From an uncultured virus (IMG/VR IMGVR_UViG_3300024432_002033) (lineage: Duplodnaviria; Heunggongvirae; Uroviricota; Caudoviricetes): 20,000 nucleotides of DNA. The DNA lies in IMG/VR virus record IMGVR_UViG_3300024432_002033. One strand, written 5' to 3'. Under the pieces are notes generated by a model, which worked only from the letters and a program-made list of their open reading frames with translations, searched no databases and was not told the DNA's origin. Of this stretch, positions 292 through 15,890 are shown one piece after another; positions within the stretch are counted from its first letter, which is position 1, and each line of letters starts with the position of its first letter. The translations under genes were made by a program, and so were the position numbers.

Positions 292-293
292 TA

Positions 294-1955
294 TCATTCC
301 TCCATATTATTCGAATTTGAATCCAGGACGACCCGCTTTATGTATACTCGAACACCTTCGGGGGTGTCGTAATCTAACGGTGGGTCGAATCTCTTCACGA
401 TCTTAGGCTGCCAGACCCAGAATTGGGTTGTCTCCGGCCACCAAGCATCCCATTCTGATGAGGAAATCCTGTGAAGGTTACGATATTTTTCCCGCACGCG
501 ACTAGTGAGGGGCCCCTCCGCCTCGCCTTCAACCATGATCCCGTGGATCCCATCCTCGCCCACTATGTGGATCTGCTGGTCGCTGTATTTTCCGTATGGC
601 TTCGTCCCGACGATGATCTTCTTATGCCCACTTGCCAGCCATTCCGCGTGTTTACCGGCTAGGCATCGGCCTGGCAGCGGGACCATCATTTTCTTGATCT
701 CCTTCAAGGGGAAGCCGAGCTCATCTCTTATCCAGGTCTCATCCGGTGAGACGATCCCCTTGTCTATGGATTCCATTATCGTACTCCGGATCGCGGCCAT
801 GTCCATGGTAGTAAGAGGCGCAAAGGTGAGCTTCGGAGGGATTTCAAGCTCCCAGTTTAATCCGGCCACGAATGCGAGCATCTGGTTGAGAACGTCGGTC
901 AGCTCAAGTCTGAAATCCTCGAAGCGCATGAGAATTATGTCGAAAGGTACTTTGGGTCCATAGACACCCCCGCCACCCTCGAAGAGCTTCTGGCCTATGA
1001 GCATGCGCCGCAAGATCATTTCGTCCTGGTATCGGATGTAGCCGTCATAGGGCATTTGCCTGCGCCTCGATTCGATGACCTCGATTGCGGTGGGATCTTT
1101 TTCATGTCGTTTCAGAAGGACGCCCTGGCTTCGGGCATAGAGATGCTCTATGGTATCGAGTACATTATCCATATCTCCCGGCGTGGGCGCGATTCCCAAG
1201 AGAATGGGGCTTCCAAACCTCTCATAACCAATGTTGGCGAATTTGAGCATGGCGTCCTTAATAAACCAATTTTTGTAACACGCGTTCAGGAGTGATTGAC
1301 CATACCAATTACCGAATTCGCTGTTATGACTCCAAATCAGCATCCGATCTAGGGGCAGATCTATTCTGCTTCCGCCTATGCGCTCCTCTATTTTCTTCAA
1401 GTTTCCAAATGGATCGCTGAAGAATTTGATATATTCTGGATTGAGCGTTTTCAAACCATTTGAGGTTCGAATGAGCCATTTCCCCTTATAATCCTCGAAG
1501 ACAATCTCGGTCACGCTGAATCCATAGGAAATGGCGCTGATCATCCCCTTCATGGCATTTCTGAAGCTTGGATAGATGAGTCCGTCAAGATTTCTTGTGA
1601 GCGTCTCCACGACTTCCTTGTCAGGATGCCGGATTTTCCAGGGCTTCATAAGCACGCCCATCACTATGAGATCGAAGCCGGCTCTTACCTGGGCGTCATT
1701 CAACATCTTCGCGTATTCTGAGAAATCAATGAGGTCTGGGTTCATATCCCCGACCGCTAGGTAAGCCCATTGGTCGCCCTTGTAGAGCCCCACGTCCTGG
1801 GTCAGTTTGTCTCGTTGCTGTGTGACGCGCTGAAGTCTGAGCGCTAAATCAGTGTAATTATCCAGTGCCTCGGTCATGCCGGGGAACAGTAGCTTGGCTG
1901 CCCTTTCCCGCGCCGATCGGAGGATGGATACTCTCGGCTGATCTATTTCTCCCAT
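294..1955 (-). CDS. Phage portal protein (DUF935 / Mu gp29-like) with C-terminal ASCH/PUA-like extension
   Basis: 553 aa, directly downstream of and overlapping the terminase. Motifs AISYGFSVTEI, FGNWYGQSLLNACY, ERFGSPILLG and WIRDELGFP are typical of DUF935-type portals. About 125 extra C-terminal residues follow the portal end. Confidence 0.88.
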   Translation of the reverse strand: MGEIDQPRVSILRSARERAAKLLFPGMTEALDNYTDLALRLQRVTQQRDKLTQDVGLYKGDQWAYLAVGDMNPDLIDFSEYAKMLNDAQVRAGFDLIVMGVLMKPWKIRHPDKEVVETLTRNLDGLIYPSFRNAMKGMISAISYGFSVTEIVFEDYKGKWLIRTSNGLKTLNPEYIKFFSDPFGNLKKIEERIGGSRIDLPLDRMLIWSHNSEFGNWYGQSLLNACYKNWFIKDAMLKFANIGYERFGSPILLGIAPTPGDMDNVLDTIEHLYARSQGVLLKRHEKDPTAIEVIESRRRQMPYDGYIRYQDEMILRRMLIGQKLFEGGGGVYGPKVPFDIILMRFEDFRLELTDVLNQMLAFVAGLNWELEIPPKLTFAPLTTMDMAAIRSTIMESIDKGIVSPDETWIRDELGFPLKEIKKMMVPLPGRCLAGKHAEWLASGHKKIIVGTKPYGKYSDQQIHIVGEDGIHGIMVEGEAEGPLTSRVREKYRNLHRISSSEWDAWWPETTQFWVWQPKIVKRFDPPLDYDTPEGVRVYIKRVVLDSNSNNMEE

Positions 1956-3511
1956 GGTAAACGGGTCAACTCCTCTTTTCTATTCCGCCAGCTGATCGGC
2001 ATCCACGCATTGCCCTCAGATCGGAAGGATTCCCAATCCGTCGCTGGAGATTTTGGGGTCGTTTCCGGTCTGGGCGCTCGAGCGGCTCTCCTCGATTCCT
2101 CATAATAGATCGGATCCCATCCGCCTAGTAGGAGAAGGAACCCGTCAACTGCGTGATCGAATTTTTTGACGGGCTTTCCGTCCGCGCCTCGGCGATACGC
2201 GAGTATCTGACTTTTAAGAGGCGCGAAATCCGGGGTATCTGGGATTGTGATCATGTCATTTTGAAGCCAATAATATGTGACCCCGATCAGCCACTCCTTT
2301 CCCTCGGTTTTACTCTGGAAGGCGCGACGCATCACTCGTAGACCGCGGTCTTCAAGTTCCCTGTTTTCAAAAGCTCCGGCGGCGTCGCAGTGCCATTCGA
2401 AGATATTATATTTTTTCCAGTCCTCTTCAGCGCGATTAGACCAATCTGTAGCGCTCGTATTATTCTCGATCAGGAGCTTCATCACGACGATCTTCTTATT
2501 GGTCCCTCGATAGCCCTCGATCATAGCCGTGTCATGATCGAAACCCCAATCAAACGCTCCTTTGGATTCGCCCCTGAACTCTAGATTTTCAGGATCATAG
2601 GGGGTCCCGTCTATGAGGAAGCCCGGATTATTGGGATCGGGGGCTTTGAATGCCCTTCTTATGAGGGTCTTGGGAAAAATTCGTCCCGCTCCGCGGGGAA
2701 GTGTTCCCACGTATTGAGTGCGAAACATTTCGTCGCTGAGGAAGAGTTGGGCGATCTCCGAGTCCCTCTTGGCTGTATCGGTCTGTAGGAAAGGGCAGTC
2801 CTTCGCGAGCCATTCGAATTTCTCGAACCCCCATTTCTTGGCATCGTCTAAAATATCGAGAAAGGATTCGGTGCCCTCTTTTCCTGGCACCGCAGTGCTG
2901 AGGAGGAAACGTCTTGGATCCTCGCTTCCACGGATCATGGGCCACGCCTCCTCCCTGATCCCCATGGGAATGAGGACGTATTCATCCATCAGAAGCGCAT
3001 CCGCGGTCGGAGCGTTGACCTGCTTAGAGCTTGCAGCACTATACCTTATCCACCCTCCAGCCTTGTACAGGGTCCTAGTCTTCATTGGCTCCCCAGACAG
3101 GAACTGGGAGAAGAAATCCCGCGTGGCTTTTCCCTCAGGCCCGGAGGGCCAGAGGATCTTCCTGCAGTAATCGTAGAGCCATTCAGCCTGAATTTGGCTG
3201 CCGGAGAGGATGAAGACCCGGTATCGTTGATCCCTCAGCGTGAGCCATACTGCTATGATAGCGACACAGATTGTTTTCCCACCTTTTCGGGGAGCCCTTA
3301 TAACGAAGTACCTCTTTCCGTCCTGCACCGCCTTGAATAATTTGAGCTGTTGGGGCGAGGCCTTATCCAAGTCGAAGAGTCGTCTCGGGACGAAATGGCG
3401 GATGAAGGCGAGAATGTTCTTGAGGGATTTCTGCCACTGAAGGTCATTAATCAGGGTCTGACCTTGGATCTTGAACTTATCAAGTTCCCTGAGAAGCGCT
3501 CCTCTTTGCAA
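1943..3511 (-). CDS. terL: Terminase large subunit
   Basis: 522 aa with TTG start. Walker A APRKGGKT, Walker B LLMDE, coupling motif LLSTA, RNase H-like nuclease acidic motifs AFDWGFDHDTA, HCDAAG and KFDHAVDG. Adjacent to the portal. Confidence 0.93.
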   Translation of the reverse strand: MQRGALLRELDKFKIQGQTLINDLQWQKSLKNILAFIRHFVPRRLFDLDKASPQQLKLFKAVQDGKRYFVIRAPRKGGKTICVAIIAVWLTLRDQRYRVFILSGSQIQAEWLYDYCRKILWPSGPEGKATRDFFSQFLSGEPMKTRTLYKAGGWIRYSAASSKQVNAPTADALLMDEYVLIPMGIREEAWPMIRGSEDPRRFLLSTAVPGKEGTESFLDILDDAKKWGFEKFEWLAKDCPFLQTDTAKRDSEIAQLFLSDEMFRTQYVGTLPRGAGRIFPKTLIRRAFKAPDPNNPGFLIDGTPYDPENLEFRGESKGAFDWGFDHDTAMIEGYRGTNKKIVVMKLLIENNTSATDWSNRAEEDWKKYNIFEWHCDAAGAFENRELEDRGLRVMRRAFQSKTEGKEWLIGVTYYWLQNDMITIPDTPDFAPLKSQILAYRRGADGKPVKKFDHAVDGFLLLLGGWDPIYYEESRRAARAPRPETTPKSPATDWESFRSEGNAWMPISWRNRKEELTRLPWEK

Positions 3512-3543: not shown

Positions 3544-3570
3544 ATAAAAAGAGTTTAGGTTAGCGTAACC
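3544..3570 (-). promoter_or_regulatory. Putative TATA promoter of terL with an upstream GGTTA-N3-TAACC palindrome
   Basis: TTTTTAT on the minus strand at ~3545-3551, about 35 nt before the TTG at 3511. Palindrome ggttagcgtaacc at 3558-3570. Confidence 0.4.
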
Positions 3571-3625
3571 GTTTTTACTTGGTGCGACCCCCTCCCCGTC
3601 CTATTCTCGTTTGTGGCTGATCCGG

Positions 3626-3910
3626 TCAATACTCTTCTTTGATACCCAGGAGATCGAGATATATCTTAAATATGGCCTTAGTATCATCACTGAATCCCTC
3701 CGCTTCTACAGCCGCTATGAAATCGGCGAATGAGGATCTCCCGCGATCAAGGGTCAAATCCATTACTATCTCATTCAACTTATCCCTGTCTTCGAGCGTG
3801 TCTTCCGCTGTAAGCGCGATCTGCTGTGATATAAGAGAAAGGATAATGTACCTGTTTATGAGATTCTGACGCTCAACCATCTGCCCTATTCCAAAGCGAT
3901 CTCTACTCAC
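3626..3910 (-). CDS. Hypothetical protein (94 aa, acidic, helical) upstream of terminase
   Basis: GTG start, protein-like composition, located directly behind repeat/promoter copy 1 and upstream of terL. Confidence 0.7.
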   Translation of the reverse strand: MSRDRFGIGQMVERQNLINRYIILSLISQQIALTAEDTLEDRDKLNEIVMDLTLDRGRSSFADFIAAVEAEGFSDDTKAIFKIYLDLLGIKEEY

Positions 3911-3943
3911 CTGAAATCGCCCTTCCTGTCACGAACATGTTGA

Positions 3944-4030
3944 TCAATAAAACGGGTTTGGGTTCCCGAACTCCCCTTTTAAATTTTACGCCGGTTTGGT
4001 TCGTATCTGCGAACCAGTTAACCCTTTTTT
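3944..4030 (-). repeat. Conserved promoter/operator repeat, copy 1 (inverted relative to copies 2 and 3)
   Basis: Reverse complement reads aaaagggttaactGGTTCGcagataCGAACCaaaccggcgtaaaaTTTAAAAggggaGTTCGggaaccCAAACccgttttattga. It aligns along its length with 10728-10810 and 13007-13089. Confidence 0.92.
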
Positions 4031-4053
4031 TTCAAGCTTCGGTCCGCGCGTAT

Positions 4054-4317
4054 CTACACGTCTGCGATTAATCTCTTGTGTTGACTTTTGGCCTCGTATT
4101 CGTTGTTTCGAGGGCAGAGATAAAGTCCTATCTTCGCCTCCCCGTCGGGCTCAAGGTGCTTCGGACACCTGAATTTACAGAGCAACGCATCGCAGACATG
4201 GTTTTTGCCAAGAGCGAAGCTACAACCAGATAAATCGACGACGGTCCCGAAGCCCGAGATACGGGCCCTCCATGGCTCTCTCTCCCCCGGCAATCTGCAC
4301 CTCTCCAGTCGCAACAC
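4054..4317 (-). CDS. Small Cys-rich hypothetical protein (possible Zn binding)
   Basis: 87 aa with six Cys plus His (C..HVC....C...CP.H....CP). TATA-like AATATAG ~20-25 nt upstream. Confidence 0.55.
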   Translation of the reverse strand: MLRLERCRLPGEREPWRARISGFGTVVDLSGCSFALGKNHVCDALLCKFRCPKHLEPDGEAKIGLYLCPRNNEYEAKSQHKRLIADV

Positions 4318-4369
4318 GCAGAGTATGGAACGCGGTCTATATTATCTTGTCGGTTGGTGAAAAAAGGGA

Positions 4370-4693
4370 CTATCCAAGGATATTTTTCAGCAGGTATTCC
4401 ACGAGCAGAAGCGCGATGGGTCCAGATATGCCGGCAATTGCGGCGACGTAGGCGATCAATCTCTTGGTACTCAGCTGGTTGGAGGCGGCTATCACCTCTT
4501 GCTTCTCCTTGAGAGATTTCTCGATGGAGGCGAGGGCTGAGCTCATCTTGGATATGTCTCTTTGTATACCTCCACGTCCGTCCTCCCCGTAGAGGGCAAG
4601 CCCGTGCCTCGCCAGTTCATCGAAGATCCGACCAGAGGTGGCGGCGCATTCGGCTCTGGTCACGTAGTTGTCACCGTTATCCTTGTTCGACAT
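4370..4693 (-). CDS. Coiled-coil protein with C-terminal transmembrane helix (XhlA/holin-accessory-like architecture)
   Basis: 107 aa. Heptad-like DISKMSSALASIEKSLKEKQE followed by hydrophobic LIAYVAAIAGISGPIALLLV. GAGGT RBS upstream. Confidence 0.75.
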   Translation of the reverse strand: MSNKDNGDNYVTRAECAATSGRIFDELARHGLALYGEDGRGGIQRDISKMSSALASIEKSLKEKQEVIAASNQLSTKRLIAYVAAIAGISGPIALLLVEYLLKNILG

Positions 4694-4702
4694 CTGAATA
4701 CC

Positions 4703-5017
4703 TCATTCCGTTGGCGGCAAATCCCGGTGTCGAATGTTATCGATCGGCCTGTTCATTATGTGATTCAGCATGAAGCCCAGGGCAAGACTGGATGCGAAGA
4801 CATAGCCTTGGGATCCGGTGGGCATATTCTGATAGAGGGAGGGAAGGGATACGAGACCCACAATGATGGAGATTGCAATAGAAGCTATCATCGTCAGGAG
4901 GTAGCGCCTATCGAATACATCGGGATTATCCCTTATAGTCCAGAAGAAATCATAGAGAGTCCTTGCGACAGGACCGCAGAGAAAACCGATGATCGCGATC
5001 GTTTCCGTCGATAGCAT
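4703..5017 (-). CDS. Small membrane protein with ~3 TM segments (holin-like)
   Basis: 104 aa with three hydrophobic stretches (IAIIGFLCGPVA; YLLTMIASIAISIIVGLVSL; YVFASSLALGFML) and a charged C-terminal tail. TTTTTAAA box at 5040-5047, ~23 nt upstream. Confidence 0.72.
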   Translation of the reverse strand: MLSTETIAIIGFLCGPVARTLYDFFWTIRDNPDVFDRRYLLTMIASIAISIIVGLVSLPSLYQNMPTGSQGYVFASSLALGFMLNHIMNRPIDNIRHRDLPPTE

Positions 5018-5118
5018 GTACTATCATTCACACAAAGAATTTAAAAAGGATTCCACTCAGATTAACCAATGGAGGACCTTTGACCTAAATAACGGCGTCC
5101 CTGAACCTATCCGAATTC

Positions 5119-5162
5119 TTTTTAAGGCAACACATACAATTTCTGTATGGTTTTATGTATGG
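5119..5162 (+). promoter_or_regulatory. TATA box plus putative autoregulatory operator
   Basis: TTTTTAA at 5119-5125. Perfect palindrome CATACA-N5-TGTATG at 5133-5149 over the expected TSS/start codon. TGTATGG is repeated at 5144 and 5156. Confidence 0.6.
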
Positions 5163-5404
5163 TAGATCTCCACGTTGAGATGACCGTTGAGGAGAGGGAG
5201 CTCCTTAGGAAGTGGAAGGGGAGAAAAAAATGGAAGGAATGGTTGCTCTCCATCCCGCGACTGCTCAGGGAAGCCGCCGACGCGAGGGAGATTGCGGAAT
5301 TAAAGCTGGAAAAAGCGATGAGAGATATCAAGGAGTTGGAGGAGCGGTGCCAACATCTTCAAAAGGAGCTGGGGAAATATGAGCGAGATTCGACTCCCAT
5401 TTAG
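5147..5404 (+). CDS. Small ribbon-helix-helix/antitoxin-like DNA-binding protein with C-terminal coiled coil
   Basis: N-terminus VDLHVEMTVEERELLRKWKGRKKWKEWLL fits a beta-strand/helix/helix pattern like archaeal RHH proteins, followed by a coiled coil. Alternative start at 5159. Confidence 0.6.
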   Translation: MVLCMVDLHVEMTVEERELLRKWKGRKKWKEWLLSIPRLLREAADAREIAELKLEKAMRDIKELEERCQHLQKELGKYERDSTPI

Positions 5405-6380
5405 CGCGCTCATACCCTTTTTCCCTCCGATGCGGCTCACGAGAGACGCGGACGAAGATCGGGACTTTCAGGAATCACTGCGGGAACATGGAATTCGCCG
5501 ACCACTACTCGTCCGCCCGCATCCCATTCACGAGGGGAAATTCGAGGTCGTGGACGGCAATCGGCGTCTGGCACACGGCCAGGTAGTTGGACTTGAGGAT
5601 GCTTCCTGCGAGGTCAGGGAGATGAGCGACGAAGAGGCGTTCACGGTCGCCCTGGTCTTAAACGTGCAGAGATCGAATGTGCCAAGCATCGGAATCGGAA
5701 ACTGGTTACAGCTGATGCAGATGAAGTTCGGTTATTCTCAGGAGAAGTTAGCTGAGAAGGTGGGCAAGAGTCAGTCCTGGGTCTCCAGACACCTGAAGCT
5801 CGTGAAATCGGAGATTGAGGAAACGAACTCTTATGAGAAAAGGGGTGATATTCCTGGAGAAATTATGTCCCGGGGCATAATCTTTGAGAGCGAGAGACAA
5901 ATGCGCGCCCTCAGATCAGCCCCGGAAGATGTCAGACGGAGCATCCTGGAGGGAGCCAGTGAGACGGGCGAGCTTCCATCAGGTCGCGAAATCGAGCGGA
6001 GGGCAACGGCTGAGATGTCCGCGGGTGAAGTCCTTGAGATATATTCTCCGAATCGTTATGACGAAGAATTCGTCGAGCATCAACTTCAGAAATTGTCCGG
6101 CGTCACTCTGACGGAGGCGAAGGAAATTCTTTGGAATTTTGGAAATCGGCGCATCAAGCCACGAGGGAAGAGAGACACCGTGGATAGGAATGACGCGGCT
6201 GTACGCGTATTTCAGCAGCTTACTCGCTATTATCCCACGAACCTGATAGATATCGTCGGGAAGCATACGAGAAGCACAAACTTGGAAACCTTGATCAGGT
6301 ACTGCAGGATGTTGACGCAGCGGATGTTTGAGATTGCACCCGAAGATTTGAAACAATCTGCCTTGCAGGACTTCATCTGA
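5379..6380 (+). CDS. ParB/RepB/Spo0J family protein (ParB/Srx domain plus HTH)
   Basis: 333 aa. SLREHGIRRPLLVRP and EVVDGNRRLA (box I and the GxxR arginine patch), LNVQR, then HTH SQEKLAEKVGKSQSWVSRHLKL. Confidence 0.9.
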   Translation: MSEIRLPFSALIPFFPPMRLTRDADEDRDFQESLREHGIRRPLLVRPHPIHEGKFEVVDGNRRLAHGQVVGLEDASCEVREMSDEEAFTVALVLNVQRSNVPSIGIGNWLQLMQMKFGYSQEKLAEKVGKSQSWVSRHLKLVKSEIEETNSYEKRGDIPGEIMSRGIIFESERQMRALRSAPEDVRRSILEGASETGELPSGREIERRATAEMSAGEVLEIYSPNRYDEEFVEHQLQKLSGVTLTEAKEILWNFGNRRIKPRGKRDTVDRNDAAVRVFQQLTRYYPTNLIDIVGKHTRSTNLETLIRYCRMLTQRMFEIAPEDLKQSALQDFI

Positions 6381-6439
6381 GATGGAAAAACGATCAGTAT
6401 TTCATTCATGAAGCATTCTTTCCTCATGGAGGGAGGAAG

Positions 6440-6607
6440 ATCCCAAAGAAATGGAAAGAGACGGCATGCCCGCTATTTCTTGTGGCGTTGATAATGTGCG
6501 GAGGGGAGATTAAGGTCCTCTTGGAGGAGAGAGAGGCGCTATGTATCGGCCCCGAATGCCAGATGTACTCTTCCGGAACCAGATCGTGTGGATTGAGATT
6601 CAGATGA
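6440..6607 (+). CDS. Small Cys-rich (probable Zn-binding) protein, start uncertain; not in ORF track
   Basis: Frame reads IPKKWKETACPLFLVALIMCGGEIKVLLEEREALCIGPECQMYSSGTRSCGLRFR*. Its TGA (6605-6607) overlaps the ATG of the next gene (ATGA). No canonical in-frame start lies upstream of the first Cys. Confidence 0.5.
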   Translation: MPKKWKETACPLFLVALIMCGGEIKVLLEEREALCIGPECQMYSSGTRSCGLRFR

Positions 6608-6798
6608 GTGGGATTGAAGCGGGAGGAACGATCAACGAGGACAATATGAAACGGATAAGGAGCCTCGCTGATACAAGACCGGAGATAATCCTATTCATTC
6701 TTGAGGATCTCATGTCACACCTCCTGAATGAGGAGGAGAAAGGACAAATAATTCGGGGAGCACTCATTCGATGGAGAGAGGCGGGGAAGGAAACATAA
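6604..6798 (+). CDS. Hypothetical protein (~64 aa)
   Basis: The ORF track gives 6541. The in-frame ATG at 6604 (MSGIEAGG...) is preferred because of the ATGA coupling with the upstream small ORF. Confidence 0.6.
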   Translation: MSGIEAGGTINEDNMKRIRSLADTRPEIILFILEDLMSHLLNEEEKGQIIRGALIRWREAGKET

Positions 6799-7292
6799 GC
6801 ATCGAGGCCAGACTCAGGGAAGCTCAGGAGCTTGCCGCGAAACCCATCGACCTCAGCGAACCCGAGAAGGAGAGATTGACCCAGATAATCGAGCTGATGA
6901 AGGACAGCTTAGATAAAGTGCTTGAGGATGCGTTGTCGAAACCCAGAGACGAGGCCTTCAAGACCGTCAATGGATATCTAATTGCGATGCAAGAAGGCGG
7001 GAAGGTCGGAGGGGAGGCCAAATCGGAGATGAAACCGCCGGCCAAACCTATCATCCATCCTAAACTCGAGGACATATTCGCTGTTCTACCCGAGAATATA
7101 TGCGCAGGGGCTCGTAAACGTCTCAGCTGCGTGAAGAGCTACATGAGGCTGGAGAAGGAGGGCGAGGATGGGAGCCAAGTTCTCTGCCTTGATTGCAGTC
7201 CGGAAAAAATGATCATCTGCCTCCGCGTTGAGGATCCGACGATAGTCGATGAGCTGGATGATGAGCTCAGGAAGGCCGGTGTGATACGGTAA
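6771..7292 (+). CDS. Hypothetical protein (173 aa; helical N-terminus, Cys-containing C-terminal domain)
   Basis: Long ORF in an operon-like run. Cys pattern C..8..C ... CLDC..6..C suggests possible metal binding. Confidence 0.75.
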   Translation: MERGGEGNISIEARLREAQELAAKPIDLSEPEKERLTQIIELMKDSLDKVLEDALSKPRDEAFKTVNGYLIAMQEGGKVGGEAKSEMKPPAKPIIHPKLEDIFAVLPENICAGARKRLSCVKSYMRLEKEGEDGSQVLCLDCSPEKMIICLRVEDPTIVDELDDELRKAGVIR

Positions 7293-7309
7293 CAGAGGAG
7301 CCCAACCTC

Positions 7310-7768
7310 TTGGGCTTAGCGATTAAACAGCTGCTCCAAGGGGGCGTGAAATACGAGCGTGAGATGAGGCCTCGCAGGACGGTGCATGGAATTATGATGA
7401 GACAGCACCTTCAGCCCTTCATACTCATAACGAAAACGGGCGAATTCGGAAGTTCAGCTGAAACCGATTTTGCGAGGGCACATCGCTTTCTGGTCGAAAC
7501 AAGTCTCACGCATGAGCAGCCTATCGTCCTCGCCTATAAACGGAATACGCGAATCAAATTTTATGCCCTCGATCCATGGAATATCAAGAAGGAATCCAGC
7601 TTAGTCCGAATCGAAGATTACATTATGATGCGCTTCCCGCTGAAATTGGGCTGGAGATGGTATCCTTCGAGAGACCTTGCGGTTCTCTGGACAAGAATGA
7701 AGGCGTCTAGATATAGCAAAACGAAACTCGAATATTTTCATACATTCAGTCAATGTACTGAGGTCTGA
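7310..7768 (+). CDS. Hypothetical protein (152 aa, basic)
   Basis: TTG start with GAGGAG RBS upstream. Ends convergently with the methyltransferase gene. Confidence 0.7.
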   Translation: MGLAIKQLLQGGVKYEREMRPRRTVHGIMMRQHLQPFILITKTGEFGSSAETDFARAHRFLVETSLTHEQPIVLAYKRNTRIKFYALDPWNIKKESSLVRIEDYIMMRFPLKLGWRWYPSRDLAVLWTRMKASRYSKTKLEYFHTFSQCTEV

Positions 7769-8279
7769 TGGCATATAGAATTCTGAGATCCGGTTTCCCC
7801 CCTGAGCGATCCTCGATGATGGTGTACTTGTTTGCACGGCACTTCTTTTTCATGATCCTGTAAAGCTGGATTGAATGCGTCTCTATGAGATATTCGGGAA
7901 TCCGTGAAAATATCTCATTGGGAATTTGGAAGAGAAAGGCCTCGCAACCCTCGCAATCTATTTGCATTAGATCAGGCGACCACCGTTTTATGAGATCTAT
8001 AAAGTCGTCCGGATGTCGTATTGGGAGGAAGATGGGAATCATATCTGGCAGGAGTTTCGCATTTTCTTTGAGTTTTTCGTAAAAGACGGGATCCCCTTCG
8101 ATCGCGATAACTCCCTTCGCGCCTTTTTGGAGGAAATAATCGGCAGTACGGCCCCAATCCGCGCCCACATCCATTACCTTCTTGCCTTCGTAATCGACGA
8201 AGCCGTATTCAGCCTCCCAGGAATCGAGGGGCACGAAAGCCCAGCCCAATGGTCGGAGGTGATTAATCCTATACTTCAC
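7746..8279 (-). CDS. FkbM-like SAM-dependent methyltransferase
   Basis: Motif I VMDVGADWG, motif II VIAIEGDP and FkbM-type MQIDCEGCE. Probable GTG start at 8279 (frame open to 8363). Confidence 0.85.
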   Translation of the reverse strand: MKYRINHLRPLGWAFVPLDSWEAEYGFVDYEGKKVMDVGADWGRTADYFLQKGAKGVIAIEGDPVFYEKLKENAKLLPDMIPIFLPIRHPDDFIDLIKRWSPDLMQIDCEGCEAFLFQIPNEIFSRIPEYLIETHSIQLYRIMKKKCRANKYTIIEDRSGGKPDLRILYAIRPQYID

Positions 8280-8296
8280 GCCCAGACCCTCAGCTT

Positions 8297-8944
8297 CTAA
8301 ATCGGGCTTGCCTTTATGAAGGTCATTAAAAGTCTCCTTCCCTCCACAATGAAGCGCCTCCACTGTTTCGTGATATGTGGTTTAACGGGAGAGGGAAGGA
8401 TTTCGCAGCATAACTCGGCTTCTTCTACTTTGAAGAAGGGATCGAGCATTTCGAATGCTTCATCATGAGTCCATCTGCTGAGAACGTTTGCATTGTCTCT
8501 GTAAGCGCTGGCGATAAACATCACTAGTAGTACTCCATTTGGCTTTAGGACGCGCTTGAATTCAGCTAGGGCTGATCTGTGATTGGATAAGTAGTATAGA
8601 AGCCAGTAAGCGATTATACAGTCCTCGCTATCAGTCGGGATCTGCGGCATATTCTGCACATCGGCGATTATGACATCCCTCCGCTTTCCAGGCCATTGTT
8701 CTGGAGTTTTCAAGTCTAATAGCCGATATCTGCTACAGTTCGAGAAAAAGCGCCAATAGCCATATAGATCATTATTACTCCCACAATTTAAGACGCTGCC
8801 TGTGATATCCTCCCCATGTCTATATAGGAACTCCATTGAGGTCTCCCTGTGTCCAATATCGGGATGCCTTCGATGAAGTAATCCCTCGGTCCATTTCTGC
8901 GAAAATTCTTCATCCAGAAGTCGGACCTTGAAGGGGATCATCAA
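8297..8944 (-). CDS. Class I SAM-dependent methyltransferase (Methyltransf_11-like)
   Basis: VLNCGS motif I variant, LLD, IIADVQNMP, EDCIIAYWLLYYL and ALAEFKRVLKPNGVL. Confidence 0.85.
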   Translation of the reverse strand: MMIPFKVRLLDEEFSQKWTEGLLHRRHPDIGHRETSMEFLYRHGEDITGSVLNCGSNNDLYGYWRFFSNCSRYRLLDLKTPEQWPGKRRDVIIADVQNMPQIPTDSEDCIIAYWLLYYLSNHRSALAEFKRVLKPNGVLLVMFIASAYRDNANVLSRWTHDEAFEMLDPFFKVEEAELCCEILPSPVKPHITKQWRRFIVEGRRLLMTFIKASPI

Positions 8945-9053
8945 GAAAATGTAGCAAGCCTCACGGATATAAAAATTTCCGCGCCGTACTGTGGCGCTCG
9001 CGTCGCTCGTGCGCGCGGTTTAAGTGAGAGCCATTGATATTATATTGAACGCC

Positions 9054-10043
9054 ATGAAGGTAGCTAAACTTGCGGCTCCCGGGAAGATGGAGTTCTTCGA
9101 GGAGCCCCTTCCCGAGTTGAGGAAAAAAGGGGAAATCCTGATCCAACCCAGATTTATGGGCATATGCGGGACCGATCTCCACTATTTCCGCCATGGTGGC
9201 CTCGGTTCTCATATGCAGGAATTACCGATGTCGATAGGACATGAAGTCTCCGGCACCGTCTCGGATAGCCTCAGTGAAGATTATGAGATCGGAGACAAGC
9301 TGGCAATCGAGCCGGGTCTGCACTGCGGGAATTGTAAATATTGCGAAAGTGGAATGCAGAATCTATGTCAGAGCCCTAGGTTTATTGGCTCTAATGTAGA
9401 GGGCGCTTTTCGTGAATGGATGGTTGTAGATGAGAAGCAAGTATTGAGAATACCTAAATCCATGAGCCTAACAGATGCTGTAATGATCGAGCCATTGAGC
9501 GTGGCAATTCACGCTGTAAGGAGGAGCCGGCTCCAACTGGGCGACAGTGTGGCCATCTACGGAGTTGGACCGATCGGGTTACTAATCCTCCAAGTCTGTA
9601 AGGCAATGGGATGTGGGGCGAGTTACGTCTATGATAAATTGGATTATAGGGTTTCATTTGCAAAGCGGTTTGGTGCAGAACCAATATGTAAAGAGGAGCC
9701 TCCGACGGTCGATATCGCATTTGATGCTGCAGGCGCGCAGGAGACGATTGACCTCTGTTTCAAGGGAACGGGTAAAGGTGGGACAGTTGTGCTCGTCGGC
9801 GTGCCCGAAACCGATTTTGTAAGTTATAATCCTCACATTAGTAGGATAAAAGAGCTCAACGTCTATAACTGCAGGCGCGCCAACAGGGCGCTCAGTTTGG
9901 CCCTCGAACTTTTCTTGTCCGATAAAGTATCTTTCGAGGGGATGGTAACCCATACGTTTTCACTTGAGAATATACAAGAAGCTTTCGAGACCGCCGCCGA
10001 TTATCGGGATCAAGTGATCAAGGCAGTCATTCAGAGGGGCTGA
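9054..10043 (+). CDS. Zn-dependent medium-chain dehydrogenase (sorbitol/threonine dehydrogenase-like)
   Basis: GICGTDLH, GHE, structural Zn motif CGNCKYC..7..C, IEPLSVAIHA and the GVGPIG Rossmann motif. ATG at 9054 lies ~30 nt after TTTAAG (the ORF track start is 9024). Confidence 0.93.
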   Translation: MKVAKLAAPGKMEFFEEPLPELRKKGEILIQPRFMGICGTDLHYFRHGGLGSHMQELPMSIGHEVSGTVSDSLSEDYEIGDKLAIEPGLHCGNCKYCESGMQNLCQSPRFIGSNVEGAFREWMVVDEKQVLRIPKSMSLTDAVMIEPLSVAIHAVRRSRLQLGDSVAIYGVGPIGLLILQVCKAMGCGASYVYDKLDYRVSFAKRFGAEPICKEEPPTVDIAFDAAGAQETIDLCFKGTGKGGTVVLVGVPETDFVSYNPHISRIKELNVYNCRRANRALSLALELFLSDKVSFEGMVTHTFSLENIQEAFETAADYRDQVIKAVIQRG

Positions 10044-10047
10044 TGAT

Positions 10048-10713
10048 ATGGGTGTTATAATCATCGGGGGAGCTGCGGGCTCGCAGATTGCCCAAGAGAT
10101 ATATCAGCTTCAGAGGATCCCAATTATCGGTTTCATGAATAATTTCGTCCCAGAGGAGATGCAAGAAGAGCGGCTCATGGCGCCCGTATTGGGAGACTAC
10201 CAGGAAGAGGCAAATCTTGCTGTGCTGAGGAAGCCGAATATCAATTATTTCGTGGCTACCGGCAACAACAGAATAAGAAAGGAGATCGTCGAGGACCTTC
10301 TAGAACTTACTGGGAAATACCCGATCAACGCCATTCATCCCATGGCCTTTGTCTCCCCCTCTGCGGAGATAGGATGGGGTAACTTAATCGTCGTCTTCGC
10401 CTATGTCCGAAACGGCTGCATAGTTGGTAACTGTGTGATCCTCAACGGAGGAGTGCAATTAGGGCAGGACAATATTATTGAAGACTATGTGCAGATAGCG
10501 CCTGGCGCCTCAATTGGGGGTTATTCCATCGTGAAGAAGCTTGCGTTCGTTGGGATAGGTGCGCAGACGGATACCCGAATCACGATAGGGGAAGGCGCCT
10601 TAGTCGCGGGTGGAGCCTTCGTGAAAGAAGACGTTGCTCCTTGGACGATGGTCGCCGGAACTCCCGCTGTCTATAAGAAGGACATAGAGGGCATCGACGC
10701 GGTCTATAAATGA
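10048..10713 (+). CDS. Sugar N-/O-acetyltransferase, PglD/NeuD family (left-handed beta-helix)
   Basis: N-terminal IIIGG domain, VATGNNRIRK, NAIHPMAFVSPSAEIG, hexapeptide repeats and C-terminal VAGTPA. Confidence 0.9.
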   Translation: MGVIIIGGAAGSQIAQEIYQLQRIPIIGFMNNFVPEEMQEERLMAPVLGDYQEEANLAVLRKPNINYFVATGNNRIRKEIVEDLLELTGKYPINAIHPMAFVSPSAEIGWGNLIVVFAYVRNGCIVGNCVILNGGVQLGQDNIIEDYVQIAPGASIGGYSIVKKLAFVGIGAQTDTRITIGEGALVAGGAFVKEDVAPWTMVAGTPAVYKKDIEGIDAVYK

Positions 10714-10812
10714 GATCGAGGCCACCGCAAAAGTTAGCGGTCCGCAGATACGAACCAAACCAGAGTAAGCCTTAAAAAGGGAGTTCGGGGACCCGAACCC
10801 GTTTTATTGAGG
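10714..10812 (+). repeat. Conserved promoter/operator repeat, copy 2
   Basis: gatcgaggcca...aaaagttagcGGTCCGcagataCGAACCaaaccagagtaagcCTTAAAAAgggaGTTCGgggaccCGAACccgttttattgagg, immediately followed by the aminotransferase ATG. It fills the entire intergenic gap. Confidence 0.92.
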
Positions 10813-11922
10813 ATGAGAGTCCGAAAATTCGACCTTAAATTCGACGAATATCAGATCGAGGCATTCAAGGCTATCTGTGAAGATATCCTTACCGCGCCCA
10901 GGCCCATCAGTAATGGATACTATGTGAAGGAATTCGAGAAGGCATTCATCAAGACAACGGGATCGAAATATGGCACGGCCGTCATGAATGGTACAGGCGC
11001 CCTCGAGGTCGCTTTGAGGGCTTTAGAGCTGGAAAATGAAACCATAATCATACCCACGAACACCTTCATTTCGACTGCCTTAACGGTCGAGAACATAGGA
11101 GCCATGATTCATCCCGTTGATATTGAGAATGAGACATTCGGCCTTGATCCAAGGAAACTCGAGGAGGCTCTTGACCAGTTAGATGTCGGGGCAGTGATCC
11201 TCGTCCATATAGGGGGTCAGATCTCGAAACATGTTGATGAGATCATCCGTATCTGTTATGAATATGAAGTGCCGCTGATCGAAGATGCATCGCAGGCTCA
11301 TTGCGCAGAATATAAATATAAGGCAGGCTCATTCGGTGAAGTCGGCACCTTTAGCTTCATGTCAACAAAGGCCATGACCACGGCTGAGGGCGGTATGATC
11401 GTTACCGACAACGAGAAGCTTGATAGTAGGATGAAGCAAATCCGCAGTTATGGGGCTCCACCCGAAGATTCACAGATTCACACGATTATCGGGGGCAACT
11501 ACAAAATGACTGAATTTCAAGCAGGCCTCGGACTCCTTGAGCTGAAGCGCGTCGAAAGGCGGATCGAGGAGAGAAGGAAACTGTCCGAGGAGTACATTAA
11601 ACGTCTGAAGGGGAATCCCGCTTATACACCAGCGGAACATTATGGCCACGCATCCTATTATAAGCAGATCATCCAATTCACGGGCGACGTGATCGAACTT
11701 AGACGGTATTGCAAGCAAAGAGAAGTTGATATGACGGGGGAGGTTTATTACAATCCCATACACTCGCAGCCGATATATAGGGGCAGATTCACTGGCCAGG
11801 ATTTCCCCGTGGCTGATTATTATTGCAAGCACCACATATGCCCTCCAAACTATCCAGAATTGTCTCTTGAGCAGGTGAAGTACGTCTGCGACGTCCTCGA
11901 TGAATTCACGAAGAAGACTTGA
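10813..11922 (+). CDS. DegT/DnrJ/EryC1/StrS family PLP-dependent aminotransferase
   Basis: NGTGALEVAL, PTNTFIST, IEDASQAH, the FSFMSTKAMTTAEGG catalytic-Lys motif and GGNYKMTEFQAGLG. ATG at 10813 (in-frame TTG at 10807). Confidence 0.94.
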   Translation: MRVRKFDLKFDEYQIEAFKAICEDILTAPRPISNGYYVKEFEKAFIKTTGSKYGTAVMNGTGALEVALRALELENETIIIPTNTFISTALTVENIGAMIHPVDIENETFGLDPRKLEEALDQLDVGAVILVHIGGQISKHVDEIIRICYEYEVPLIEDASQAHCAEYKYKAGSFGEVGTFSFMSTKAMTTAEGGMIVTDNEKLDSRMKQIRSYGAPPEDSQIHTIIGGNYKMTEFQAGLGLLELKRVERRIEERRKLSEEYIKRLKGNPAYTPAEHYGHASYYKQIIQFTGDVIELRRYCKQREVDMTGEVYYNPIHSQPIYRGRFTGQDFPVADYYCKHHICPPNYPELSLEQVKYVCDVLDEFTKKT

Positions 11923-11928
11923 GAAGGG

Positions 11929-12966
11929 ATGATCGAATTGACTGAGATGGCGCTGATAACAACGACGATCAATACCGCCGAGGTACTCAAACTTTATAGA
12001 AGGATGAACCCGGATATTCCCTTCTTCATTACGGGGGACAGGAAATCTCCACACGAAAAGCTGAAACAACTGGCTAAGGACCTAGGCAACGTCCACTACT
12101 ACGATGTTGAGGACCAGAAAAAACTTGGGTACAAGTCCTCGGAGATCATCGGGTGGAATACGATCAGACGGCGTAATATTGCCCTTCTGGAAGCCTTGAG
12201 ATACGGGGCGGATAAGATTGTCACGCTAGACGATGACAATATCCCCTTATCTTCCTCATATTTTCAAGATTTCAACATTCTGCTCTCTCAAGGTTTTGAC
12301 GGTTTGATGGCTTCAACCTTGAAAGGCTGGTTTAATGTCGGAGACTATTTCAGCCCCAAGATCTACCATAGAGGCTTCCCCCTCGAATATCGACAGATGG
12401 AACGTGAAGTACAGTTTATTCCCGTCGTGGACAAGAAGATCGGGGTAGCCGCGGGGCTGTGGTTTGGAGATCCGGATATCGATGCGATGGACCGAATAAC
12501 AAATCAGCCCATAGTCCATCAGATCTCCCAGATTCTCCATGAGGGAGTCGTAGTCGAAGAGGGAATTTTCTCACCCTTTGATTCGCAGAATACCGCATTC
12601 GTGAGGCAGCTTGCACCCCTGATGATGATGCTTGAAGTGGGTCGGTATGATGATATCTGGGCCTCCTACCTGACGCAGAGAGTTATGCATGAGAAGGGTT
12701 TCCACGTCCATTACGGGCCTCCTTTCGTATGGCAGGAAAGAAATAGGCAGAATCTCCTCGGGAACCTTGAAGCTGAGATCTTTGGGATGAAGCATACGCC
12801 TCGATTCTGCGAAGACTTGAGGCGGGTGGAGCTTGATAAGGGGAGCGTTATAGACAATCTTCAAACAATTTATGGTGAACTCGCTCAGCATGGAAAGGAT
12901 TATTTGCCTGAAGCAATGCTCAAGCAATTCGATCCTTGGTTAGAGGATCTAGAACGGGTAATGTAA
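11929..12966 (+). CDS. RGP/GT75 (UDP-arabinopyranose mutase)-like or STELLO/DUF288-like GT-A protein
   Basis: ITTTIN, RRNIALL, the TLDDDN acidic motif, HRGFP, GLWFGDPDIDA and GRYDDIW match hallmark motifs of reversibly glycosylated polypeptides and the related DUF288 family. Confidence 0.78.
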   Translation: MIELTEMALITTTINTAEVLKLYRRMNPDIPFFITGDRKSPHEKLKQLAKDLGNVHYYDVEDQKKLGYKSSEIIGWNTIRRRNIALLEALRYGADKIVTLDDDNIPLSSSYFQDFNILLSQGFDGLMASTLKGWFNVGDYFSPKIYHRGFPLEYRQMEREVQFIPVVDKKIGVAAGLWFGDPDIDAMDRITNQPIVHQISQILHEGVVVEEGIFSPFDSQNTAFVRQLAPLMMMLEVGRYDDIWASYLTQRVMHEKGFHVHYGPPFVWQERNRQNLLGNLEAEIFGMKHTPRFCEDLRRVELDKGSVIDNLQTIYGELAQHGKDYLPEAMLKQFDPWLEDLERVM

Positions 12967-12991
12967 ATGAGAGGCGTGAGAAAAATGAAGG

Positions 12992-13092
12992 GATCGAGGC
13001 CAGAGCAAAAGGTTATTGGTCCGCAGATCCGAACCAAACTAGGGTAAACTTTAAAAGGGAGTTCTGGAACCCGAACCCGTCTTATCGAGGAT
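12992..13092 (+). repeat. Conserved promoter/operator repeat, copy 3
   Basis: gatcgaggccagagcaaaaggttattGGTCCGcagatcCGAACCaaactagggtaaacTTTAAAAgggaGTTCTggaaccCGAACccgtcttatcgaggat, directly before the epimerase ATG at 13095. Confidence 0.92.
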
Positions 13093-13094
13093 AA

Positions 13095-14099
13095 ATGGCT
13101 GAGGACAAAACTGGAGAAGCTCCGTCTAGGGAAAAATGCCTTGTGACGGGCTCGTCAGGATTTATCGGCAGTCATATGGTGAACTTCCTTAAGAATCGAG
13201 GATATTGGGTGCGCGGAGTCGACGTGAGGCACAAGTCTGAATGTCACCTGAAGACGTTTGAAGATGAGTTTTATCAGTTGGATTTGAGAGTGGCTGAAAA
13301 TGCGGTCTACATGGTTAAAGACATAGATTATGTGTTTCATTTAGCCGCCAACATGGGGGGTGTAGGATACATTATGGAGATCCACTCCCCGGTGCTCTAT
13401 GATAATCTCATGATTAACCTTAATATGCTGGAAGCCGCTCGCTTCGAGGGGGTTGAAAGATTCTTCTTCAGCAGCTCGGCATGCGTCTATAACCGAGAAC
13501 TTCAGACTATGCCGGACGTGACGCCTCTAAGGGAAAGCGATGTATACCCGGCTTGGCCCGATTCGGTCTACGGGTGGGAGAAACTCATCGCCGAGATAGC
13601 ATGTGAAAATTATGAGAAGGACTATGGGCTCCCCGTCAGAATCGCACGTTTCCACAACGTAATGGGACCCTATGGCACCTACAAGGGCGGAAGAGAGAAA
13701 GTGCCAGCCGCGCTCTGCCGAAAGGTTGCGGAGGCCCATGACGGAGATAAAATCGAGATCTGGGGAGACGGGAAACAGACGCGAAGCTTCCTCTATATAG
13801 ATGACTGTTGTGAGGCATTCTATCAGCTCGTGCTCAGCAACTACAACAAACCCGTTAACATCGGCACGGACCGCCTGATCTCGATAGACGACCTTGCCTG
13901 CCTCATACTCGAAATCGCCGATAAAGACTGTGACTTGTATCATGATATGAGCCGTTGGCAGGGGGTTAGAGGTCGAAATGCCGATCTCACACTGGTCAAG
14001 AGCGCGATTGGTTGGGAGCCGAAGACCAGCCTAGAGGAGGGCCTACTGCGCACCTACGAATGGATAAAGAAGATGGTACAGGAAGATGCAGTCTCATAG
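13095..14099 (+). CDS. GDP-mannose 3,5-epimerase-like extended SDR
   Basis: GSSGFIG, HLAANMGGVGYI, SSSACVY, YGWEK (YxxxK), GGREKVPAALCRK, WGDGKQTRSF and GVRGRN, which are characteristic of the GME subfamily. Confidence 0.9.
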   Translation: MAEDKTGEAPSREKCLVTGSSGFIGSHMVNFLKNRGYWVRGVDVRHKSECHLKTFEDEFYQLDLRVAENAVYMVKDIDYVFHLAANMGGVGYIMEIHSPVLYDNLMINLNMLEAARFEGVERFFFSSSACVYNRELQTMPDVTPLRESDVYPAWPDSVYGWEKLIAEIACENYEKDYGLPVRIARFHNVMGPYGTYKGGREKVPAALCRKVAEAHDGDKIEIWGDGKQTRSFLYIDDCCEAFYQLVLSNYNKPVNIGTDRLISIDDLACLILEIADKDCDLYHDMSRWQGVRGRNADLTLVKSAIGWEPKTSLEEGLLRTYEWIKKMVQEDAVS

Positions 14100-15111
14100 T
14101 GAACGCGGTGAGGACAAAGCGGGCGCTGGAGGAAATCCAACCCTTGAAAGTCCAATTAAAATCTACGTTATCGCCCCATGGACTGTGACCGAGAATGAAC
14201 ATGCTTTTCTGAGAGCTCACTCGCCCCTCGATTCCGGGAGATGGGCTAATATTGAATTCTGTGATTGTTTCGATGACACTGATCTGTATATAGTCTTCTG
14301 GGGCGGTGGGCCAAATCCCTATCGTAGGATGAAACGATGCCCTGCTCATTCAGTGCTCAATTTTACTAGAGAGAGCAGTCGAAGGATTGCGCCTGAATGG
14401 ACGTTTGGCGAAGAAACGATTTACTGTCAATGGCCATCCGATACACTCAATCTTCAGATTTGGGGTGGAGATGGAGCTCCTAATCCTCACGAAAGGGTGA
14501 AGCATTATTCAGATCTCAACGGCGCCCCTTTTCCAAAGAAATCAGGTCTTCTCTCGTGGATAACCACCGGAGATTACTCCCTTCCTAGTGAGCGGGATCG
14601 AATAGATTTCATGAGGAAATTTACAAACGAGTACCCTGGCGTGCTGGATCTATATGGCAGGAACACGGGCGAATTCGATTTGAGTTCGATTGACACCTAT
14701 AAGGGACCTCTAGAGAACAATCGGGGTGCGCTGGATCCATATGAATATACTTTTACCTTCGAGAATATCCGTGAGCCCAATTACATGTCGGAGAAGTTTA
14801 ACGATGCTATCCTAGCGGGATGCATTCCCATCTACCGGGGCATGACAAACATAGCCAATTATTACCCGAAGGGCTCATTCATTGAGGTAGACATAACTAG
14901 GGAAGACGCACCTCAAAAGGTCATGAAAATATTAGAGAGCGATCATAGGGAACAAAATATAGAAGCTCTGTATAAGGCGAAAGATTTACTGCTCAACAAA
15001 TATCAATTCTGGCCGGCTCTATTCGGGCTCATTCATCGGCTTATAGAGAACGGCACGATTGACCTAAATAAGCTGGAATGGCGAAGGAATAAAAATCGAT
15101 ATATTTACTGA
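14086..15111 (+). CDS. Glycosyltransferase family 10 (alpha-1,3-fucosyltransferase-like)
   Basis: GT10 motif YEYTFTFENIREPNYMSEKFNDAILAGCIPIYRG, plus R..F and DLYGR. Alternative TTG start at 14143 with GGAGG RBS. Confidence 0.85.
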   Translation: MQSHSERGEDKAGAGGNPTLESPIKIYVIAPWTVTENEHAFLRAHSPLDSGRWANIEFCDCFDDTDLYIVFWGGGPNPYRRMKRCPAHSVLNFTRESSRRIAPEWTFGEETIYCQWPSDTLNLQIWGGDGAPNPHERVKHYSDLNGAPFPKKSGLLSWITTGDYSLPSERDRIDFMRKFTNEYPGVLDLYGRNTGEFDLSSIDTYKGPLENNRGALDPYEYTFTFENIREPNYMSEKFNDAILAGCIPIYRGMTNIANYYPKGSFIEVDITREDAPQKVMKILESDHREQNIEALYKAKDLLLNKYQFWPALFGLIHRLIENGTIDLNKLEWRRNKNRYIY

Positions 15112-15173
15112 CCTGGGCTTGTGTAGGGGATCACAAGGGCACGGCTTGGATCCTTTGGAGGGATCGAAATTTA

Positions 15174-15815: not shown

Positions 15816-15890
15816 ACAGATGGGGAAGAAGGCTTCGCCCCTGGCTCAAGGTCATCCCTGTCTCGCCTTCGGAGCGGCCCCTTCACCCGA

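Follow-up and report, generated by a model that had tools for sequence, protein, structure and literature searches.

The DNA considered here is a 20,000-nucleotide stretch, called the window throughout, from the uncultured tailed virus recorded in IMG/VR as IMGVR_UViG_3300024432_002033 (Caudoviricetes), and the subject of this analysis is an intergenic element of about 100 bp that occurs in it three times. Copy A, on the minus strand, faces a small open reading frame (ORF) that is followed by the genes for TerL and the portal protein. Copies B and C, on the plus strand, lie in an accessory region that holds a block of sugar-modifying genes, and each precedes one of them. A gene for a protein with ParB_N and helix–turn–helix (HTH) domains is found between copy A and this region, and a GT4 glycosyltransferase gene lies beyond it (Table 1). 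No tRNA gene was found in the window.

The three copies resemble one another closely. Self-BLAST gives 85.3% identity over 102 nt for B against C, 86.1% over 79 nt for A against B, and 84.1% over 82 nt for A against C; all three can be aligned over about 100 nt, with nhmmer E-values of 1e-26 to 1e-28. Each contains two 16-bp inverted repeats of the form GTTCG-N6-CGAAC that bracket a TATA-like box, and in each the box is preceded by GTAA(A/G), which resembles the B recognition element (BRE) of archaeal promoters. With at most one mismatch allowed, the inverted-repeat pattern has six matches in the window against 0.59 expected, a number reached in none of 200 shuffles, and all six fall within the copies. 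The start-to-start spacing of the paired sites is 43, 43 and 42 bp in copies A, B and C. Thus a conserved intergenic element in three copies, 84–86% alike, with its six palindromic sites and their regular spacing around a TATA-like box, is present as the initial annotation had described it.

Table 1. Features of the window and, in the last row, of related loci (BRE, B recognition element; an empty cell means that nothing was recorded)
Feature	Coordinates	Strand	Basis or remark
Mu-like portal	294-1955	minus	PF06074, E 6.3e-39
TerL, T4-type	1943-3511	minus	Pfam
94-aa (or 84-aa) ORF downstream of copy A	3626-3910	minus	four-helix protein (AlphaFold)
12-codon upstream ORF downstream of copy A	3938-3903	minus	
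Copy A of the element	3941-4043	minus	nhmmer E 6.7e-28
Copy A, 69-nt core	3948-4016	minus	edges: divergence of metagenome contigs at 3947/3948 and 4016-4018
Copy A, inverted repeat 2 (1 mismatch)	3956-3971		between TATA box and expected transcript start
Copy A, BRE-like GTAAAA and TATA-like TTTAAAA	3977-3989	minus	box at 3983-3977; columns (near-)invariant in 13 copies
Copy A, inverted repeat 1 (0 mismatches)	3999-4014		upstream of BRE/TATA
ParB_N and HTH protein	5379-6380	plus	PF02195, E 1.5e-11; PF17762, E 2.1e-5
Variable accessory (glycan-modification) region containing copies B and C	7746-15815		gene content varies among relatives with TerL 90-96% identical
Sugar-modifying block		plus	Pfam: methyltransferases, zinc alcohol dehydrogenase, PglD-like acetyltransferase, DegT, RGP-like glycosyltransferase, epimerase, GT10 enzyme, methyltransferase
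Copy B, between hexapeptide acetyltransferase and DegT genes	10714-10813	plus	nhmmer E 7.2e-27
Copy B, inverted repeat 1 (1 mismatch)	10740-10755		
Copy B, BRE-like GTAAG and TTAAAAA box	10765-10778	plus	box at 10772-10778
Copy B, inverted repeat 2 (0 mismatches)	10783-10798		
DegT/DnrJ/EryC1-family aminotransferase behind copy B	10813-11922	plus	PF01041, E 1.3e-85
Copy C, between RGP-like glycosyltransferase and epimerase genes	12992-13091	plus	nhmmer E 1.9e-26
Copy C, inverted repeat 1 (1 mismatch)	13019-13034		
Copy C, BRE-like GTAAAC and TTTAAAA box	13044-13056	plus	box at 13050-13056
Copy C, inverted repeat 2 (1 mismatch)	13061-13076		
GAGGA ribosome-binding motif	13087-13091		ahead of the epimerase gene behind copy C
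NAD-dependent epimerase/dehydratase behind copy C	13095-14099	plus	PF01370, E 1.5e-52
GT4 glycosyltransferase	15891-17063	minus	Pfam
RadA/Rad51 genes of related loci	L028:4564-5541, L036:5041-6027, L040:2402-3475, L052:3091-4179, L059:1145-2221, L064:107-1072		

TerL has 82 database homologues, and a scan of metagenome contigs with the TerL alignment yielded 79 related loci, all of them partial and the majority from marine, estuarine and subsurface sediments. With an nhmmer profile of the window's three copies, ten further copies were found in seven of these loci: two each in L004, L011 and L050, and one each in L002, L003, L022 and L042. In all seven, TerL is 90–96% identical to that of the window. 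Because a profile built from all 13 copies recovered no additional copy across the 79 loci, the element appears to be restricted to one narrow clade. In L055, whose TerL is 89% identical, and in relatives at 74–76% TerL identity, the genes orthologous to the two neighbours of copy A directly adjoin or overlap each other, leaving no intergenic DNA; copy A is therefore a lineage-specific insertion and not an ancestral promoter. In a viral contig collection neither TerL nor the element patterns had a match. The patterns matched a single entry in the genome collection, a Mariniflexile genome, and only the pattern is matched there, so this hit is put down to chance. A DegT search of the same collection returned only matches of about 30% identity, in bacterial metagenome-assembled genomes, which says nothing about the host.

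The aligned copies consist of a well-conserved core of 69–72 nt, with 0.7–1.1 mismatches per column among 12 distinct sequences, and a 5′ extension of about 25 nt, with 4.3 mismatches per column; beyond these limits the flanks are unrelated between contexts. The TTAAAA columns of the box are invariant in 13 of 13 copies, as is GTAA three nucleotides upstream. The variable columns of the core are four between repeat 1 and GTAA, three after GTAA, and the inner positions of repeat 2, where the fifth position is a G in just 7 of the 13. GAGG(A) stands ahead of the ATG at two types of 3′ junction, named B-type and C-type after the window copies. A coding function for the element was considered and rejected, since the core contains a 1-nt indel and its variable columns show no 3-nt periodicity.

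Every copy faces a start codon, which lies 10–20 nt past the core in all 13, and at least five different genes stand behind the copies: the 94-aa ORF, DegT, the epimerase, a methyltransferase gene (L050) and an 88-aa ORFan (L004). Position A is occupied in 8 of 8 clade genomes; the other copies travel with accessory genes. The small ORF behind copy A has two candidate starts, giving 94 aa in 12 of 33 database homologues and 84 aa in 21 of 33. Closer to the element lies a 12-codon ORF whose start is 45 nt from the TATA box, the distance also seen for the gene at copy C; it begins where the genes behind copies B and C begin, and its end overlaps the GTG of the 94-aa ORF. Short ORFs of differing sequence occupy the same position in L003, L004, L011 and L050. 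The AlphaFold model of the 94-aa protein, a confident one with four helices (pLDDT 82.6), had no match in the PDB with Foldseek at E up to 0.001, and the homologues of this protein are close ones only. It was considered as an autoregulator and set aside: neither the homologues nor the fold search gave evidence of DNA binding.

Gene content between a 152-aa ORF and the GT4 gene differs sharply among relatives whose TerL proteins are 90–96% identical. L002 lacks the equivalent of window positions 7376-15921, that is, most of the glycan genes together with copies B and C; L011 lacks one methyltransferase gene; in L004 the methyltransferase gene is duplicated and the DegT block is inverted; and in L050 a different nucleotidyltransferase gene adjoins the element. 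The tandem methyltransferase copies of L004 (L004:429-1787) show 78% and 72% identity with the product of the window gene at 8297-8944; between the two copies, DNA identity is 88.6% over 604 nt.

When contigs (not raw reads) of four metagenome runs, X1 to X4, were mapped onto positions 3600-13500, the summed contig depth of the three bins that hold the element exceeded that of neighbouring bins. In run X1 it was 2–5 times as high, with values of 564 against 172 and 110 for one copy and 233 and 268 against about 90 for the others, and the excess was similar in X2 to X4. No RNA run was among the 24 runs listed for the stretch. Many contigs can be aligned over 3948-4016 alone and carry sequences on either side that differ from contig to contig, and several of these continue with a junction of the GAGGATA(A/G)ATG type, followed by different ORFs. 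An empty site at copy B was found in runs X1 and X2: their contigs run from position 10715 to 10813 through 18 different letters where the window has 97 nt. Some contigs link the element to position 7787 or 8293.

Several copies are chimeric. Those at position A in L004 have the signature of B-type copies behind GTAA, and their identity is 93% with copy B compared with 86–92% with other position-A copies; the position-A copy of L003 and L042 has a C-type 3′ junction. In L050 the first codons of the epimerase gene have been retained and are fused ahead of the methyltransferase gene. In L004 the 88-aa ORFan lies between two copies that are 94% identical, with an inserted sulfotransferase gene adjoining. 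Thus a probably archaeal group of sediment viruses places the element before different accessory genes and swaps it among them.

The BRE/TATA layout of the element is also seen at other gene starts in the virus family. In 516 upstream regions from the window and related loci, TTTWWWW boxes concentrate 26–43 nt before ORF starts, with 21–48 per 3-nt bin against about 5 elsewhere, and among 78 distinct examples A-rich positions lie 4–6 nt before the box. At least 24 of 70 examples listed have the geometry of leaderless genes, with the ATG 27–32 nt after the start of the box. Within the window, a TTTTTAA or TTTTTAT box lies 28–31 nt before the start codon of three genes that look leaderless (5147 plus, 5017 minus and 8944 minus). 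Two of these boxes, both TTTTTAA, share the divergent region 5018-5146 between the gene for a 104-aa membrane protein and an operon of an 85-aa ORF and the ParB-like gene, each at 28–31 nt from its ATG and with no ribosome-binding motif, a leaderless geometry of archaeal type. A single AT-rich box at 8960-8995, TATA-like in both directions, lies between the divergent genes for a methyltransferase (8297-8944, minus) and a dehydrogenase (9024-10043, plus) and is a possible bidirectional promoter.

A second line of evidence on the host comes from the recombination genes of relatives. RadA/Rad51-type recombinases, mostly with an HhH domain, are encoded in six related loci and score 228–286 bits against Rad51 and 26–46 bits against bacterial RecA; L069 encodes a Topo VI-A-like protein. 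The solved structures that best match the L036 RadA are archaeal RadA proteins, and among its best 120 homologues the only three that bear an organism name are from Bathyarchaeota, Bathyarchaeia and MCG-15, at 61–63% identity. Promoter geometry and the RadA genes together make an archaeal host very probable, and the archaeal-type transcription assumed by the initial annotation is supported as the most likely kind. Bathyarchaeia offer a weak lead as to which archaea these may be.

These observations are best accommodated if an uncultured tailed virus, most likely one that infects archaea, uses the element as a portable promoter cassette complete in itself, a reading to which we assign, from sequence comparison, a probability of roughly 0.6. 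In the proposed organization, the moderately conserved 5′ extension is followed by the core, in which inverted repeat 1, the A-rich BRE-like motif, the TTTAAAA TATA box, inverted repeat 2 and a T-rich stretch succeed one another; the GAGG(A) ribosome-binding motif and the start codon would complete the 3′ end. The host TATA-binding protein (TBP), transcription factor B (TFB) and RNA polymerase would initiate immediately beyond repeat 2, some 24–27 nt from the TATA box, so that whichever gene lies downstream would be given a brief leader that includes a ribosome-binding site. The GTTC...GAAC half-sites are common to both repeats and would lie on the same face of the helix; the repeats most likely serve as docking sites for a putative dimeric regulator, viral or host. 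Bound at repeat 2, such a regulator would block recruitment of the polymerase, and at repeat 1 it might help or hinder TFB and TBP. Because 70–100 bp of near-identical sequence recur within the genome and in co-occurring strains, the cassette would also be a substrate for homologous recombination, through which accessory genes could be inserted, deleted and swapped.

Several observations weigh against this interpretation. Some breakpoints fall away from the elements, at 7375/15922 in L002, at 13131/15169 in L050 and at the inverted DegT block of L004; since not all of them lie at copies, the element can be one exchange route, not the sole one. The arms of the palindromes average 0.70 mismatches per column against 0.50 for their own spacers (p=0.36, 13 copies) and 1.10 for the rest of the core (p=0.10), so that the expectation of the initial annotation that the arms would be better conserved than the spacers is not upheld. 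Apart from the identical pair in L003 and L042 the copies are 76–94% alike, which leaves the arm-to-spacer test little power, and their conservation may reflect recent spread; an operator role of the palindromes is not specifically supported by conservation. Apart from the ParB-like protein discussed below, the 20 kb yielded no candidate regulator. For the promoter statistics, ORF starts were set mechanically and the loci are mutually related, and 27 of the 70 examples listed represent one and the same box, the orthologous one ahead of TerL. The sequence of the TATA box is close to symmetric, and its orientation is read from the A-rich motif before it and from where the downstream gene lies. 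Finally, the assignment to an archaeal host is indirect: the RadA genes belong to relatives at 54–60% TerL identity and not to the window virus itself, and none was seen in its 20 kb.

The abundance of the element in the community, with diverse flanks, its polymorphism for presence and absence, its lineage-restricted insertion, and conservation that is even over the core and not focused on the motifs would also suit a selfish miniature repeat, similar to a miniature inverted-repeat transposable element or spread by recombination, in which the box and palindromes simply belong to the mobile unit and have no regulatory role. This is nevertheless unlikely. All 13 copies are intergenic and in the sense orientation, and each precedes, by a short and constant interval, a start codon equipped with a ribosome-binding motif, a combination that random insertion would not produce. 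The ends of the aligned copies have no terminal inverted repeats, no target-site duplication accompanies the empty site with its spacer of 18 unrelated letters, and neither a transposase nor an integrase was found in the window with Pfam. A resemblance to integron attC sites was also considered and rejected, as the arms, judged by eye, depart from the core-site consensus and no integrase is present. It is rather improbable, too, that the palindromes act as hairpins in RNA or single-stranded DNA, as a terminator or attenuator of transcripts arriving from upstream, a 5′ leader or a small RNA. Both inverted repeats do fold as hairpins in most minimum-free-energy structures, a T-rich run follows repeat 2 on the sense strand, T-runs follow both repeats on the antisense strand, a scan for terminator-like structures lists the repeats of copy B, and the genes on either side of copies B and C run in one direction. 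However, compensatory changes were found in none of 13 pairs of the two hairpins and no covariation measure exceeded that of shuffles (13 copies); in 8 of the 12 distinct copies one base pair of helix 2 is lost; the six strands have folding z-scores between -2.45 and +0.32; and Rfam gave no match in the window at E up to 1. With neither covariation nor a stable fold, the symmetry of the repeats is better read as a feature of DNA. The antisense T-run is the TATA box read in reverse, and if transcripts start after repeat 2, as predicted, neither hairpin would be part of the cassette's own transcript.

The Mu-like portal and T4-type TerL might suggest instead a bacteriophage with a bacterial-type promoter and operator, or an element unrelated to archaeal transcription; TerL also has no relative among 185,579 species genomes. 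This reading is given very little credence. The window contains 15 sigma-70-like sites against 22.8 ± 4.7 expected, and none falls within the three copies; the box-to-ATG geometry fits archaeal leaderless promoters; relatives carry recombinases of the RadA and not the RecA type along with the Topo VI-A-like gene, with Bathyarchaeia as the nearest named organisms; and TerL has no match in 50,697 phage records.

The initial annotation had proposed a further reading, a virus-specific regulon in which the ParB-HTH protein binds both palindromes and so couples synthesis of a virion glycan to packaging. Global repressors of the KorB/ParB type act at short palindromic operators at several promoters of one replicon, and here too repeated palindromes, 16 bp long and paired about four helical turns apart, are found near the gene for a protein with ParB_N and ParB-type HTH domains. 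That protein has a sub-threshold match to KorB and is the only recognizable DNA-binding protein in the window (Pfam, PHROGs); the small ORFs contain no DNA-binding domain at E up to 5 in Pfam and up to 0.1 in PHROGs. Across relatives, however, the KorB/ParB analogy fails, because protein and sites do not co-occur. The gene belongs to the core set, with occurrences in 34 related loci, some of them from relatives that lack the element, and the WVSR motif of its HTH helix is invariant down to 32% overall identity, whereas GTTCG-N6-CGAAC pairs are confined to the seven loci of the clade with TerL at least 90% identical. An invariant recognition helix would imply a DNA target shared by the whole family, unlike palindromes limited to one clade; because the loci are partial, this mismatch is not absolute. 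The ParB-like protein is thus a very doubtful candidate for the specific binder, and the proposal is not borne out.

Nor is the link to packaging supported. TerL and portal have a promoter-like BRE/TATA box of their own, upstream of TerL at about 3544-3559 and conserved down to about 54% TerL identity, so copy A would directly serve the small ORF only. Each copy does point into a gene, as the initial annotation stated, but copy A does not stand directly ahead of terL and portal. Moreover, the element precedes non-glycan genes in relatives, and L002 lacks most of the glycan genes; a regulon tying glycan to packaging, with a glycan made for the virion, finds no support when the element accompanies whichever accessory gene is present. 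The region upstream of TerL (3544-3575, minus), which comprises the box, an upstream A-run and a GT dinucleotide, is itself conserved to a degree unusual in intergenic sequence, and might represent a late promoter together with a regulator site, or else belong to the packaging signal.

If the element is a portable promoter cassette, it is not a new kind of system, since repeated intergenic units that bear promoters have been published for T4-type phages and for halovirus HF2. The promoter early stem-loop elements (PeSLs) of T4-type phages are conserved units of about 100 bp in which a strong promoter is combined with a stem-loop that lies between its boxes or overlaps them, and whose 3′ end carries a Shine-Dalgarno motif and a start codon. 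In hyperplastic regions they are found beside ORFans, which are shuffled by recombination between units, and such recombination also gives rise to chimeric copies. Terminator function, promoter strength and mini-circles have been demonstrated for them, according to the passages cited (PMC2839356, PMC4122927). The cassette likewise sets repeats capable of forming stem-loops beside promoter boxes, and ends in a ribosome-binding motif (at B- and C-type junctions) and a start codon, the latter in 13 of 13 copies. Its copies also mark insertions, deletions and replacements among close relatives, include chimeras and in one case flank an ORFan, as those accounts relate for PeSLs. It differs from PeSLs as there described in that its promoter is of the BRE/TATA type and not a sigma-70 early promoter, and in having two inverted repeats with shared half-sites where a PeSL has one G/C-rich stem-loop. 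The sequences are unrelated.

In HF2, 58-bp and 29-bp intergenic repeats had promoter activity in reporter assays, and the class I and II repeats contain AT-rich promoter motifs found nowhere else in the genome (PMC8707807). The parallel is an archaeal tailed virus with short intergenic repeats, and here too the palindrome pattern is exclusive to the copies. Within the published description, the HF2 repeats hold their positions across the genus, whereas here position A alone is constant (8 of 8), and that description offers no counterpart to dual palindromes around a TATA box. The HF2 class I motif CTTTAAGT had no match here, and the motif CGTCTNNTAGAG had two one-mismatch matches against 0.93 expected, which is chance level. 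In SIRV2 and other archaeal viruses, a shared BRE/TATA consensus precedes small early and anti-defence genes, and Aca8, a virus-encoded DNA-binding protein, has been proposed as the repressor of the SIRV2 genes with the shared promoter (PMC11065993, in the section cited). A similar BRE and TATA upstream sequence ahead of unrelated accessory genes is the common feature. As that section presents them, however, the SIRV2 group are rudiviruses of Sulfolobales; the present virus is tailed, the genes served are mostly sugar-modifying, and no regulator candidate was found.

Other parts of the window also have features that deserve comment. Just upstream of copy A, an 87-aa Cys-rich protein with a possible zinc-binding fold is encoded at 4054-4317 on the minus strand; it has no family match in Pfam or PHROGs, and with tblastn matches in 50 loci its gene ranks among the small genes conserved most widely across the family. 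The segment 18028-18938, about 900 nt, has no ORF of at least 60 aa except short overlapping ones. Between 19000 and 20000 the GC content falls to 40% with strong AT skew, and a 353-aa protein of unknown family is encoded that is 92% identical in L002. At the other end, the first ORF of the window (1-297, minus) appears to be the N-terminus of a giant protein that in relatives directly follows the portal, with a length of about 2040–2055 aa (L009:9285-15452, L015:12993-19121, L021:13029-19196, L052:12861-18926). An ATP-dependent DNA ligase domain was recognized in it in both of the loci scanned, L009 and L015 (E 4e-25 to 6e-25), and a domain of metallo-beta-lactamase fold in L009.

It is tempting to regard the cassette as the archaeal-virus counterpart of the PeSLs. 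According to this broader and as a whole tentative view, a community pool of units composed of promoter, twin operator, ribosome-binding site and ATG would allow sediment archaeal viruses, possibly of Bathyarchaeia, to swap genes for surface glycans and other accessory functions under one dedicated putative regulator, and the exchange might be catalysed by the RadA recombinase of the virus family itself. Since the PeSLs share the logic of the cassette, the design may have arisen independently on bacterial-type and archaeal-type transcription machinery. The cassette could help to locate accessory genes in related viruses from metagenomes and, possibly, become a promoter part for archaeal genetics. 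Little is known of gene control and gene acquisition in uncultivated archaeal viruses of sediments, and the element offers a concrete predicted promoter and operator sequence. The natural variation among strains indicates that accessory sugar-modifying genes move in these viruses as units equipped with a predicted promoter.

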